Shown in pieces: positions 54,469-57,990 of a stretch of DNA of 64,000 nucleotides. The notes under the pieces were generated by a model. That model was given only the letters and a program-made list of their open reading frames with translations. It was not told the origin of the DNA and searched no databases. The translations under genes and the position numbers were made by a program. Positions within the stretch are counted from its first letter, which is position 1. The number at the start of each line of letters is the position of its first letter. The stretch is from Escherichia coli (lineage in GTDB: Bacteria > Pseudomonadota > Gammaproteobacteria > Enterobacterales > Enterobacteriaceae), in the NCBI RefSeq assembly GCF_003334785.1, contig NZ_QOWV01000004.1. One strand, written 5' to 3'.

Positions 54469-55902
54469 ATGAAGCAAGGTTTGCAACTCAGGCTTAGCCA
54501 ACAACTGGCGATGACGCCACAGCTCCAACAGGCAATTCGTCTGTTGCAGTTGTCGACGCTGGAACTTCAGCAGGAGCTACAGCAGGCGCTGGAGAGTAAT
54601 CCGCTGCTTGAGCAAATCGACACTCATGAAGAAATCGACACCCGCGAAACGCAAGACAGTGAAACGCTGGACACCGCCGACGCGCTCGAACAAAAAGAGA
54701 TGCCGGAAGAGCTGCCGCTCGATGCCAGTTGGGACACCATTTACACCGCTGGTACACCATCCGGCACCAGCGGTGACTACATTGACGACGAGCTGCCGGT
54801 CTACCAGGGCGAAACGACGCAGACCTTGCAGGATTACCTGATGTGGCAGGTTGAGCTGACACCGTTTTCCGACACTGACCGCGCTATTGCTACCTCTATC
54901 GTCGATGCCGTTGATGAAACCGGTTATCTGACTGTCCCGCTGGAAGATATTCTCGAAAGTATAGGCGATGAAGAGATCGACATCGACGAAGTTGAAGCCG
55001 TCCTTAAGCGGATCCAACGGTTTGATCCGGTCGGTGTGGCGGCAAAAGATCTGCGTGACTGTCTGCTGATCCAACTCTCCCAATTCGATAAGACCACGCC
55101 GTGGCTGGAAGAGGCCAGACTGATCATTAGCGATCATCTCGATCTGTTAGCCAATCACGACTTCCGCACTTTAATGCGCGTCACGCGTCTGAAAGAAGAT
55201 GTGCTGAAAGAAGCCGTCAATCTGATCCAGTCGCTCGATCCGCGCCCCGGGCAGTCGATCCAGACTGGCGAACCTGAGTATGTCATTCCAGATGTGCTGG
55301 TGCGTAAGCATAACGGTCACTGGACGGTAGAACTCAACAGTGACAGCATTCCGCGTCTGCAAATCAACCAGCACTACGCCTCGATGTGCAATAACGCGCG
55401 CAACGATGGTGACAGCCAGTTTATCCGCAGCAATCTGCAGGATGCCAAATGGTTGATCAAGAGTCTGGAAAGCCGTAACGATACGCTACTGCGCGTGAGT
55501 CGCTGTATCGTTGAACAGCAGCAAGCCTTCTTTGAGCAAGGTGAAGAATATATGAAACCGATGGTACTGGCCGATATCGCCCAGGCTGTCGAAATGCATG
55601 AATCGACGATATCTCGCGTGACCACGCAAAAATACCTGCATAGTCCACGAGGCATTTTTGAACTGAAGTATTTCTTTTCCAGTCACGTCAATACCGAGGG
55701 CGGCGGCGAAGCTTCCTCCACGGCGATTCGTGCGCTGGTGAAGAAATTAATCGCGGCGGAAAACCCAGCGAAACCGTTGAGCGACAGCAAGTTAACCTCT
55801 TTGCTGTCGGAACAAGGTATCATGGTGGCACGCCGCACTGTTGCGAAGTACCGAGAGTCTTTATCCATTCCGCCGTCAAACCAGCGTAAACAACTCGTTT
55901 GA
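54469..55902 (+). CDS. rpoN: RNA polymerase sigma-54 factor, 477 aa
   Basis: 477-aa ORF; Gln/Leu-rich N-terminus [29 protein letters not shown]; C-terminal RpoN box [10 protein letters not shown]. Confidence 0.97.
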
Positions 55903-55924
55903 CCCAACCGATAAGGAAGACACT

Positions 55925-56212
55925 ATGCAGCTCAACATTACCGGAAATAACGTCGAGATCACCGAGGCACTGCGCGAATTTGTTACAGCCAAATTTGCCA
56001 AACTTGAGCAATATTTTGACCGAATCAACCAGGTCTATGTTGTTCTGAAAGTGGAGAAAGTCACCCACACCTCAGATGCAACACTGCATGTAAACGGTGG
56101 TGAAATTCATGCCAGCGCGGAAGGTCAGGACATGTACGCTGCCATTGATGGCTTAATTGATAAGCTGGCACGCCAGTTGACCAAACATAAAGATAAACTG
56201 AAACAACACTAA
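55925..56212 (+). CDS. hpf: ribosome hibernation promoting factor, 95 aa
   Basis: ATG at 55925 (MQLNITGNNVEITEALREFV); ORF-track start at 55841 is an extension overlapping rpoN. Confidence 0.95.
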   Translation: MQLNITGNNVEITEALREFVTAKFAKLEQYFDRINQVYVVLKVEKVTHTSDATLHVNGGEIHASAEGQDMYAAIDGLIDKLARQLTKHKDKLKQH

Positions 56213-56329
56213 TTGTCCGGGCAATTAGCATGTGCATGGCGGTCTGTTGTGCGGCACAACGGGCCATTTGTACGGTTAATGCTCCGAGCCTGTTCCACTG
56301 TTTGAGTGGGCAGGTTCTTAGGTGAAATT

Positions 56330-56821
56330 ATGACAAATAATGATACAACTCTACAGCTTAGCAGTGTTCTTAACAGGGAATGTACGCGAAGCCGCGTCCA
56401 CTGTCAGAGCAAAAAACGCGCCCTGGAAATCATCAGCGAGCTGGCGGCGAAACAACTTAGCCTGCCGCCTCAGGTGGTTTTTGAAGCTATCCTGACGCGG
56501 GAAAAAATGGGCAGTACCGGTATCGGCAATGGTATTGCCATTCCGCATGGCAAACTGGAAGAAGATACTCTGCGCGCCGTTGGCGTTTTCGTTCAGCTCG
56601 AAACGCCTATAGCTTTCGATGCCATCGACAACCAACCGGTGGACTTACTTTTTGCCCTGCTGGTGCCGGCAGACCAAACTAAAACGCACCTGCATACTCT
56701 GTCGCTGGTGGCGAAACGTCTGGCGGACAAAACCATCTGCCGCCGTTTACGCGCAGCCCAGAGCGATGAAGAGCTGTATCAAATCATTACGGATACCGAA
56801 GGTACTCCGGATGAAGCGTAG
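56330..56821 (+). CDS. ptsN: nitrogen-PTS enzyme IIA(Ntr), 163 aa
   Basis: ATG at 56330 (MTNNDTTLQLSSVLNREC); phospho-acceptor His in GIAIPHGK; ORF-track start at 56306 is an extension. Confidence 0.95.
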   Translation: MTNNDTTLQLSSVLNRECTRSRVHCQSKKRALEIISELAAKQLSLPPQVVFEAILTREKMGSTGIGNGIAIPHGKLEEDTLRAVGVFVQLETPIAFDAIDNQPVDLLFALLVPADQTKTHLHTLSLVAKRLADKTICRRLRAAQSDEELYQIITDTEGTPDEA

Positions 56822-56866
56822 TTATTCGGTAATGTCTCTTTTAGACGTTGTGAGGAGAAACAGTAC

Positions 56867-57721
56867 ATGGTACTGATGATCGTCAGCGGACGTTCAGGTT
56901 CAGGTAAATCTGTCGCCCTGCGTGCGCTGGAAGATATGGGTTTTTACTGCGTGGATAACCTTCCCGTAGTGTTGTTACCCGATCTGGCTCGAACCCTGGC
57001 CGATCGCGAGATTTCTGCCGCCGTCAGCATTGATGTTCGTAATATGCCGGAGTCACCAGAAATATTCGAACAGGCGATGAGTAACCTGCCTGACGCTTTC
57101 TCACCGCAACTCCTGTTCCTGGATGCCGACCGTAATACCTTAATTCGTCGTTACAGTGACACGCGCCGACTGCATCCGCTTTCCAGCAAAAACCTGTCGC
57201 TGGAAAGTGCTATCGACAAAGAAAGCGATTTGCTGGAGCCTCTGCGTTCGCGAGCGGATCTGATTGTCGATACCTCAGAAATGTCCGTTCACGAGCTGGC
57301 TGAAATGCTGCGTACCCGTCTGCTGGGTAAACGTGAACGCGAACTGACCATGGTCTTTGAGTCTTTCGGCTTCAAACACGGTATCCCTATCGATGCAGAT
57401 TACGTCTTTGACGTGCGCTTCTTGCCGAACCCGCACTGGGATCCGAAACTGCGTCCAATGACAGGTCTTGATAAACCTGTCGCCGCGTTCCTCGACCGCC
57501 ACACAGAAGTACACAATTTTATCTACCAGACGCGAAGCTATCTTGAGCTATGGTTACCTATGCTGGAAACCAACAACCGTAGCTACTTGACGGTCGCCAT
57601 TGGTTGTACCGGCGGGAAGCACCGTTCGGTGTATATTGCAGAGCAACTGGCAGACTACTTCCGCTCGCGCGGTAAAAACGTCCAGTCACGCCATCGTACG
57701 CTGGAAAAACGTAAACCATGA
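56867..57721 (+). CDS. rapZ: RNase adaptor protein RapZ (P-loop NTPase), 284 aa
   Basis: 284-aa ORF; Walker A GRSGSGKS. Confidence 0.95.
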
Positions 57722-57990
57722 CCGTCAAGCAAACTGTTGAAATCACAAACAAGCTGGGCATGCATGCCCGGCCTGCAATGAAGCTGTTTGAATTAATGCA
57801 GGGTTTTGACGCTGAAGTGCTCTTACGTAATGACGAAGGCACCGAGGCTGAAGCCAACAGCGTTATTGCGCTGCTGATGTTGGATTCTGCCAAAGGACGG
57901 CAGATTGAAGTTGAAGCGACCGGTCCACAGGAAGAGGAAGCACTGGCCGCCGTTATCGCCCTCTTTAATTCTGGTTTTGATGAAGATTAA
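57718..57990 (+). CDS. npr: phosphocarrier protein NPr (HPr-like), 90 aa
   Basis: 90-aa ORF; HPr-like active-site His in KLGMHARPA; start overlaps rapZ stop by 4 nt. Confidence 0.95.

Follow-up and report, generated by a model that had tools for sequence, protein, structure and literature searches.

Francke et al. (2011; PMC3162934) described the genomic context of rpoN, with kdsCD-lptABC-yhbH(hpf)-PTS-Ntr-yhbJ(rapZ) as neighbors, as conserved in diderm bacteria and related it to the cell exterior. The genes ptsO (npr) and ptsN are reported to form one operon with rpoN, and also with lptB and rapZ, that is under sigma-E and sigma-70 control, with lptB as the upstream neighbor co-transcribed with rpoN (PMC4635465). 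Transcripts spanning the junctions are stated in two publications (PMC4635465; PMC6456747), and a separate ptsN 5' end was found in Salmonella (PMC6456747). RapZ, the adaptor that links the sRNA GlmZ to RNase E, controls glmS, and GlmM follows GlmS in the hexosamine pathway (PMC4152352). Publications thus already exist on the operon, on its connection with LPS export, including a comparative analysis, and on the RapZ/GlmZ/glmS circuit. A previous reading of the present DNA, based on the letters alone and here denoted as the sequence-only reading, had likewise called the operon and its co-location with envelope genes already described, and the literature says so (PMC4635465; PMC3162934).

The canonical rpoN operon in the window

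The window, i.e. the whole stretch of 64,000 nucleotides of Escherichia coli DNA that was analyzed, harbors rpoN, hpf, ptsN, rapZ, and npr as five ORFs at 54469-57990, all on the (+) strand (Table 1). The ORFs span exactly the interval to which the sequence-only reading had assigned an rpoN-hpf-ptsN-rapZ-npr module, and both NCBIfam and RefSeq agree with the gene names. The placement of the module immediately after the LPS transporter is likewise confirmed, lptB ending 47 nt before rpoN. Over 54300-58100, this 3.8-kb stretch shows 100% nucleotide identity to E. coli K-12 MG1655, and the coordinates of the five genes equal those of the MG1655 RefSeq annotation after mapping (window = L001 + 48299). 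No difference to the lptB-rpoN-hpf-ptsN-rapZ-npr operon of that strain was detected; it is the same object. All 5426 complete E. coli genomes examined contain the stretch. Copies labelled as plasmid-borne were discarded; four of the nine records measure 4.8-5.4 Mb and another four 350-790 kb, and they are probably mislabelled chromosomes or fragments. The locus represents the canonical rpoN operon of E. coli with the sequence found in K-12 (probability about 0.97), and is called ordinary here since it is the well-studied operon that the sequence-only reading had named.

Table 1. Features of the rpoN operon, the hpf-ptsN spacer, and glmM in window coordinates.
Feature	Description	Position	Strand	Length	Evidence and remarks
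lptB	LPS export ABC transporter ATPase	53696..54421	+		NCBIfam NF008144, 538.7 vs 381 bits; RefSeq annotation
rpoN	sigma-54	54469..55902	+	477 aa	NF004597 equivalog, 1053.1 vs 817 bits, residues 1-477/477
hpf	short-form ribosome hibernation promoting factor	55925..56212	+	95 aa	NF007780, 204.8 vs 125 bits, 1-95/95
hpf-ptsN spacer		56213..56329	+	117 nt	fold z = -4.2
Spacer hairpin	long three-section hairpin	56219-56284			spacer fold
Central helix	11-bp helix of the spacer hairpin	56241-56265			56241-56251 pairs with 56255-65
Second spacer hairpin		56286-56317			followed by the ptsN Shine-Dalgarno AGGTG
ptsN	EIIA-Ntr	56330..56821	+	163 aa	NF008145, 335.5 vs 221 bits; phosphorylation site His73
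rapZ (yhbJ)	RNase adaptor protein	56867..57721	+	284 aa	NF003828, 363.3 vs 244 bits
npr (ptsO)	NPr phosphocarrier	57718..57990	+	90 aa	NF008146, 189.4 vs 119 bits; His16; PDB 5t17 match
glmM		32485-33822	-		TIGR01455, 655 vs 447.6 bits

In the HMM comparison that had been suggested as a check, each of the five proteins, matched in full length, scores above its NCBIfam equivalog cut-off. RpoN also exceeds the cut-off of TIGR02395 (550 vs 277 bits), matches PDB sigma-54 chains, e.g. 9mse_M, over its full length, and carries an exact RpoN box, ARRTVAKYR, at residue 454. This C-terminal motif serves in the recognition of the -24 promoter element. HPF matches the 95-aa PDB chains 2rql/6h4n with residues 1-95 and is thus a short form without the long C-terminal dimerization domain; its score of 67.8 bits against the RaiA model (cut-off 158) sets it apart from RaiA/YfiA. 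PtsN, with a histidine at residue 73 in the context IAIPHGK, corresponds in residues 1-163 to PDB 1a6j (163 aa). RapZ shows a Walker A P-loop (GRSGSGKS, residues 8-15) and matches PDB 5o5o/8b0i (284 aa) with residues 1-284, and chain 5o5s_A, the C-terminal RNA-binding domain, aligns to residues 154-284. NPr possesses the active-site histidine at residue 16 and is distinct from the sugar-PTS HPr, whose model NF008104 yields 33.2 bits at a cut-off of 153. Since the HMM matches and the K-12 identity were both tested and neither failed, the identification of all five genes stands, and nothing contradicting it was encountered. The locus accordingly serves as a positive control, as its genes and coordinates had been correctly named from raw sequence; the operon is among the best-characterized regulatory ones of E. 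coli, and structures have been solved for each of the five proteins.

This analysis provides the gene identities, the residues, the gene order, and the conservation, and the biochemical functions are established in the literature on these exact proteins. According to that literature, rpoN provides sigma-54 and hpf a factor stabilizing hibernating 100S ribosomes. The products of ptsN and npr form the end of the regulatory nitrogen-PTS phosphorelay, in which EI-Ntr, encoded elsewhere, transfers phosphate to His16 of NPr and from there to His73 of EIIA-Ntr. RapZ, reported to bind GlmZ and GlmY and to recruit RNase E, delivers GlmZ to this nuclease, with less glmS translation as the outcome when GlcN6P is plentiful; that RapZ governs GlmZ decay and hence glmS had been part of the sequence-only reading, in agreement with the literature (PMC4152352).

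Conservation was assessed in the 80 loci with the most similar RapZ, a set that reached Enterobacterales only. The order lptC-lptA-lptB-rpoN-hpf-ptsN-rapZ-npr was retained in these 80 species loci, as far as each of them reaches, with one Xenorhabdus lacking npr as the exception. The comparison across Gammaproteobacteria that had been proposed is therefore covered by our data for the 80 Enterobacterales species and, for the wider range, by the literature (PMC3162934). The lptA-lptB gap measures 6 nt in 72 of 76 species, 71 of 80 have 22 nt between rpoN and hpf, and 74 of 79 retain the 4-nt overlap of rapZ and npr. Downstream of npr, yrbL follows in 15 of the 80 loci only.

Transcription of the operon and the hpf-ptsN spacer hairpin

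The five genes follow lptB on one strand and, judging from the literature and from gene spacing, are probably transcribed together with it. The junctions comprise 47 nt (lptB-rpoN), 22 nt (rpoN-hpf), 117 nt (hpf-ptsN), 45 nt (ptsN-rapZ), and -4 nt (rapZ-npr, where the npr start overlaps the rapZ stop in ATGA), so that the hpf-ptsN spacer is the longest within the operon. Terminator-like sites were not enriched over shuffled sequences (15 vs 9.4 +/- 3.6); on the (+) strand, the operon has such sites only as weak 5-pair stems in ptsN, and none was found after npr. A scan with the sigma-70 consensus, of little discriminating value here, gave three promoter-like sites, fewer than the 8.9 in shuffles, none of them on the (+) strand inside the operon. 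Rough patterns of the sigma-E and sigma-54 type had no match in 49800-54600 or in the window, which does not contradict the reported sigma-E control.

The spacer is predicted to fold into a long hairpin with a central 11-bp helix, followed by a second, shorter hairpin. Of 72 distinct spacers from about 40 genera, 71 have a hairpin at this position (fold z < -2), and its central stem displays compensatory changes in 8 of 11 pairs; its structure is conserved, its sequence is not. Rfam gave no match in the operon at the gathering threshold and none in 54300-58300 even at E <= 1. In the 5426 genomes, no annotated feature lies on the E. coli spacer, which is present in one copy per genome (blastn, word size 11), and the entire collection yielded one further copy, labelled as plasmid. 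The hairpin is the only unlisted item found at the locus; early sequence papers may already mention a stem-loop. No published transcript end, 5' or 3', turned up near hpf/ptsN in the Term-seq data searched.

A sequestration of the ptsN Shine-Dalgarno sequence or a translational coupling, suggested by folds in which the hpf 3' end (CACUAA) pairs with UUAGGUG, was rejected. The pairing probability had a median of 0.02 and never exceeded 0.5 in 75 distinct sequences, and no covariation was seen between the hpf stop codon (TAA or TGA) and the nucleotide preceding AGG.

Between rpoN-hpf and ptsN-rapZ-npr, the conserved hairpin probably marks a post-transcriptional boundary, established by processing or by differing stability, and the operon would not be a uniform unit. 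More specifically, and only tentatively, the spacer is proposed to contain an unannotated, structurally conserved cis-acting RNA hairpin that protects or defines the 3' end of rpoN-hpf, generates the ptsN 5' end at -67, or both. If true, the level of HPF could be set independently of EIIA-Ntr, RapZ, and NPr, and the "transcription start" published for Salmonella ptsN would reflect either RNA processing or a stop of reverse transcriptase at the hairpin base. HPF and EIIA-Ntr/RapZ/NPr are needed under different conditions. For their differential expression from one operon, a conserved hairpin exactly at this boundary represents a concrete, mutable candidate element, possibly of modest importance.

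Alternative explanations

The separate ptsN 5' end in Salmonella (PMC6456747) argues against expression of the five genes solely as one transcript and may also be read as a promoter signal. There would then be two expression units, rpoN-hpf transcribed by read-through from lptB, and ptsN-rapZ-npr mainly from a spacer promoter with its start 67 nt upstream of ptsN. This arrangement is possible, though doubtful, and is compatible with all five gene identifications. It agrees with the length of the spacer, the longest junction of the operon, as well as with the Salmonella data, i.e. a primer extension 5' end at -67 and an expressed ptsN-lacZ fusion (PMC6456747). However, the -67 position corresponds to window position 56263, inside the spacer hairpin, where the G lies within the 3' arm of the conserved helix, 2-3 nt off the helix base; at such a site reverse-transcriptase stops or processed ends are to be expected. 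Moreover, the sigma-70 consensus scan gave no (+) promoter-like site in the spacer, and the spacer upstream of -67 is, apart from the pairing, poorly conserved between genera. The hairpin thus suggests caution over the reported ptsN start site.

Another explanation regards the hairpin as an intrinsic (Rho-independent) terminator or attenuator ending most transcripts after hpf. A GC-rich, covarying 11-bp stem just past the stop codon, followed in E. coli by AUUUGUAC, would fit such a function. Yet none of the 72 distinct spacers has at least 5 T within the 8 nt past the hairpin, most having 0-3, the terminator scan did not call the hairpin, and no other strong promoter has been demonstrated for ptsN, rapZ, and npr. 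As the hairpin lacks a T-tract, this explanation is disfavored and considered improbable.

A further proposal concerns the surroundings of the operon rather than the spacer. The sequence-only reading had placed glmM about 23 kb away, which is roughly right, as the distance amounts to 23.0 kb from rapZ and to 20.6 kb from the rpoN start. Selection to cluster amino-sugar genes with rapZ could be invoked, since GlmM shares the hexosamine pathway with GlmS (PMC4152352) and the window contains many envelope genes, such as kdsDC, lptCAB, and mtgA. This is very unlikely: the target of RapZ is glmS, and glmM is not the RapZ-regulated step; glmM lies on the opposite strand in a separate folP-ftsH neighborhood, with about 20 unrelated genes between it and rpoN, and no mention of such a link was found in the literature consulted. 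Evidence supporting a functional meaning of the 21-23 kb distance was not found.

Least credible is a dispersed repeat of the REP/BIME or ERIC type that landed by chance, without a function specific to the operon. ERIC-like insertions, tentatively assigned to ERIC by primer sequences, are present in the hpf-ptsN spacers of Buttiauxella noackiae (L057) and Xenorhabdus stockiae (L075), but the E. coli element is single-copy in the 5426 genomes and for this reason rejected as a repeat, and the hairpin recurs at one place across some 40 genera with covarying stem pairs.

Comparison with related systems

The earlier context study (Francke et al., 2011; PMC3162934) covers the same co-location theme as the sequence-only reading; it deals with gene content and context, and the RNA structure of the spacer is not described there. 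Among the Enterobacterales rpoN clusters (Salmonella, Klebsiella, Citrobacter, Enterobacter, Erwinia, Pantoea, Xenorhabdus), the same gene order goes along with a structured hpf-ptsN spacer throughout. Outside E. coli, the spacer of these bacteria varies between 55 and 292 nt, and the hairpin sequences are largely unrelated. The second spacer hairpin (35 nt) is restricted to Escherichia, Salmonella, and one Citrobacter. Xenorhabdus deviates at the end of the operon, rapZ and npr being separated by 17-172 nt, and the one species noted above has no npr within 5.5 kb.

Intercistronic hairpins that stabilize mRNA include the REP element between malE and malF and the hairpins of the puf operon. Such an arrangement can keep 3' exonucleases off the upstream segment and can give upstream and downstream genes different levels. 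The hpf-ptsN hairpin resembles these elements, by analogy only, in being a stable sense hairpin without a T-tract, located 3' of one cistron in a polycistronic mRNA. It differs from the malE-malF REP in that it is single-copy and no member of the REP family, and is, by analogy, a candidate stabilizer.

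Identity and anatomy of the operon

Five successive ORFs on the + strand were seen in the ORF list of 50000-61000; their coordinates are given after start-codon correction (see table). Upstream of rpoN lie, in order, yrbG, kdsD, kdsC, lptC, lptA, and lptB. In a megablast search of the complete RefSeq genomes of E. coli, all included, the segment 54300-58100 was present in 5426 of 5426, with 100% identity to, among others, K-12 MG1655. After mapping (locus L001; window = L001 + 48299), the MG1655 annotation in RefSeq places these genes at identical coordinates. Because of this identity and the matching annotation, the segment is assigned to an E. 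coli K-12-like chromosome. The span 54469-57990, put forward for rpoN-hpf-ptsN-rapZ-npr in the sequence-only reading, is exact, as ORFs and mapped annotation agree.

Coordinates of the operon, its spacer, and other features of the window
Feature	Position	Strand	Basis
lptB	53696-54421	+	upstream neighbour of rpoN
rpoN	54469-55902	+	ORF list, start corrected
hpf	55925-56212	+	ORF list, start corrected
hpf-ptsN spacer	56213-56329		
main hairpin	56219-56284		predicted fold
central 11-bp helix	56241-56265		predicted fold
second hairpin	56286-56317		predicted fold
ptsN	56330-56821	+	ORF list, start corrected
rapZ	56867-57721	+	ORF list, start corrected
npr	57718-57990	+	ORF list, start corrected
ArcZ sRNA	60329-60436	+	Rfam RF00081, 120.8 bits
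glmM	32485-33822	-	TIGR01455, 655 vs 447.6 bits
SraG	20979-21150		Rfam match
S15 leader	21380-21494		Rfam match
naRNA4	23007-23077		Rfam match
rimP leader	27776-27876		Rfam match
greA leader	38563-38684		Rfam match
two tRNAs	27968-28041 and 31827-31910		Rfam matches

In a search of the NCBIfam library, with the curated equivalog cut-offs as threshold, all five proteins scored above their own cut-off and were matched end to end: RpoN (NF004597, 1053.1 vs 817 bits), HPF (NF007780, 204.8 vs 125 bits), PtsN (NF008145, 335.5 vs 221 bits), RapZ (NF003828, 363.3 vs 244 bits), and NPr (NF008146, 189.4 vs 119 bits). The neighbours LptC, LptA, LptB, and YrbL likewise exceeded their NCBIfam cut-offs. The paralogous RaiA model stayed below cut-off for HPF (67.8 vs 158), and the model of the sugar-PTS protein HPr did so for NPr (33.2 vs 153). 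The expected His73 of PtsN and His16 of NPr were found, as were a Walker A motif in RapZ (GRSGSGKS, residues 8-15) and the RpoN box (ARRTVAKYR at 454). All five proteins gave full-length matches to same-named PDB chains, including 5o5o/8b0i for RapZ and, e.g., 1a6j for EIIA-Ntr, 5t17 for NPr, 2rql/6h4n for HPF, and 9mse/8f1i for sigma-54. Identity and order of the genes and their place behind the LPS transporter, as first read from the sequence, are borne out by the HMMs, the MG1655 annotation, and the position of lptB 47 nt upstream of rpoN.

Within the operon, rpoN and hpf are separated by 22 nt and ptsN and rapZ by 45 nt, and rapZ and npr overlap by 4 nt (ATGA); the 117-nt hpf-ptsN spacer is the sole long junction. 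Further upstream, lptC and lptA share 32 nt (53132-53163). A consensus scan for terminator-like sites yielded 15 vs 9.4 +/- 3.6 in shuffles, i.e. no excess; its + strand candidates within the operon are weak 5-pair stems inside ptsN, and no terminator-like hairpin was found 3' of npr. The 70 nt after the npr stop (57991-58060) contain 23 C and 6 G, and such a C-rich, G-poor stretch would be compatible with Rho-dependent termination. Rfam gave no match inside 54300-58300, even at E <= 1; the closest RNA gene, encoding ArcZ, sits 2.3 kb past the downstream end of the operon, between elbB and arcB. A perfect direct repeat of the PhoP-box type (TGTTTA-N5-TGTTTA) lies at 58137-58153, 51 nt upstream of yrbL, in keeping with the NCBIfam name 'PhoP regulatory network protein YrbL'.

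Gene order and junctions across Enterobacterales

A RapZ scan of a species-representative genome collection returned 567 confirmed relatives, of which the 80 most RapZ-similar loci were kept; as a consequence, the comparison spans Enterobacterales only (about 40 genera, out to Xenorhabdus, Erwinia, and Pantoea). Mapping by tblastn with the E. coli proteins recovered the order lptC-lptA-lptB-rpoN-hpf-ptsN-rapZ-npr in every locus. Genes are absent from some loci because the locus DNA ends early, with one exception, Xenorhabdus koppenhoeferi (L077), where tblastn detected no NPr homologue in the 5.5 kb that follow rapZ, even with the threshold relaxed to E <= 10. The rpoN-hpf gap measures 22 nt in 71 of 80 species, and the rapZ/npr overlap is retained in 74 of 79, the five exceptions all being Xenorhabdus; in species of this genus (L075-L080) the broken overlap leaves gaps of 17-172 nt. 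Between lptA and lptB the gap is 6 nt long in 72 of 76 species, in line with the LPS transport genes being tightly coupled in translation. In only 15 of the 80 species is npr followed by yrbL.

The operon was also matched on records labelled as plasmids. A 60-kb plasmid of Klebsiella quasipneumoniae (NZ_CP058863.1, 26882-27775) carries a 0.9-kb fragment with the 3' part of rapZ and npr at 84.5% identity. The remaining eight records (four of 4.8-5.4 Mb, four of 350-790 kb) look like mislabelled chromosomes or chromosome fragments.

The RNA fold of the hpf-ptsN spacer

The spacer is predicted to form a long main hairpin in three sections, with a central 11-bp helix, and a second hairpin; its fold has z = -4.2 against dinucleotide shuffles. 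Spacer length varies between 55 and 292 nt over the 80 species, and the sequence is mostly unalignable between genera. Nevertheless, z lies below -2 in 71 of 72 distinct spacers (median -4.26; about 40 enterobacterial genera). For length-matched control stretches from the same loci (ptsN-rapZ junction, lptB-rpoN junction, inside rapZ, inside rpoN), the median z was -0.2 to -0.5, and only 1-7 of 60 fell under -2. The mRNA-sense strand folds more stably than its complement in 64 of the 72, as expected from G-U pairing in an RNA.

RNAalifold, applied to the 33 sequences of the alignable class, recovers the 11-bp helix; 8 of its 11 pairs show compensatory double changes, and its covariation score was reached by none of 500 column shuffles. 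Paired cells amount to 97%, vs 35-57% with partners slid by 1-3 columns, a comparison that favours the unslid state as the structure derives from the same alignment; the per-sequence z-scores are independent of that structure. Short spacers (Klebsiella, Kluyvera, Trabulsiella, and others) carry different hairpin sequences, in which 8 of 12 predicted pairs show double changes, although the sequences align poorly. The second hairpin is a 35-nt insertion restricted to Escherichia, Salmonella, and one Citrobacter. Spacers of 203-292 nt in Buttiauxella noackiae (L057:4862-5080) and Xenorhabdus (L075) were expanded by insertions that we take to be ERIC-like, judging from ERIC1R/ERIC2 primer matches with 3-4 mismatches; by eye, the 172-nt rapZ-npr gap of X. 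innexi (L080) contains a similar sequence.

The preferred reading is that the hairpin may act as a cis-acting RNA boundary for processing or stability, which would help to set the levels of rpoN-hpf and ptsN-rapZ-npr separately. Primer extension in Salmonella mapped a transcript 5' end to a G at position -67 relative to the ptsN start codon, which was read as evidence of a ptsN promoter (Choi et al., 2019; PMC6456747). In E. coli (window 56263) and in the Salmonella locus compared here (subspecies diarizonae, differing from the published strain), position -67 is a G that falls in the 3' arm of the central helix, at a distance of 2-3 nt from the helix base; stalling of reverse transcriptase or trimming by a nuclease would be expected to leave an end there, though a true ptsN transcription start at -67 is still a tenable explanation. 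Sequestration of the Shine-Dalgarno (SD) sequence is rejected on a median probability of 0.02 for its pairing with the hpf end. A canonical intrinsic terminator (0 of 72 spacers with at least five T among the 8 nt that follow the stem), a dispersed repeat (one copy per genome in 5426 genomes), and an Rfam family (no match, even at E <= 1) are rejected. None of the 5426 genomes has an annotated feature under the hairpin, and no earlier description was found in the full-text literature or Term-seq supplements searched, whose coverage leaves out the early operon papers. The hairpin is a modest, testable lead.

glmM and the published circuit

The glmM gene, adjoining folP and ftsH, had been placed about 23 kb away; this holds for the rapZ start (23.0 kb), the distance to the rpoN start being 20.6 kb, with about 20 unrelated genes between glmM and rpoN. 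No evidence that the distance matters was found in sequence or literature. RapZ targets glmS, not glmM, and GlmM converts the GlmS product in a later pathway step (PMC4152352).

At 29740-31398 (-), a region of low GC (0.425 vs about 0.52) coincides with an ORF of 552 aa that belongs to the phosphoethanolamine-transferase superfamily but scores far under all NCBIfam cut-offs (152.8 vs 500 bits at best). By its place on the K-12 map it is probably yhbX, and possibly an envelope-modification gene gained by horizontal transfer.

Everything that the sequence-only reading names about the locus was already known, and the interpretation given there is supported. ptsO, ptsN, and rpoN are described in one operon, which also includes lptB and rapZ and is controlled by sigma-E and sigma-70; NPr in its dephosphorylated form inhibits LpxD and has an effect on envelope stress (PMC4635465). 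RapZ, which binds the sRNA GlmZ, brings in RNase E, and GlmY serves as a decoy; what the circuit sets is glmS translation and, through it, the supply of GlcN6P for peptidoglycan and LPS, and the glmY promoter is of the sigma-54 type, activated by GlrR (PMC4152352). Since sigma-54 drives glmY and RapZ handles GlmZ, two products of one operon act on the same circuit. Conservation beyond Enterobacterales is reported for the sigma-54 gene context of diderms, with kdsCD, lptABC, yhbH (HPF), PTS-Ntr, and yhbJ, a conserved context tied to the cell exterior (Francke et al., 2011; PMC3162934).
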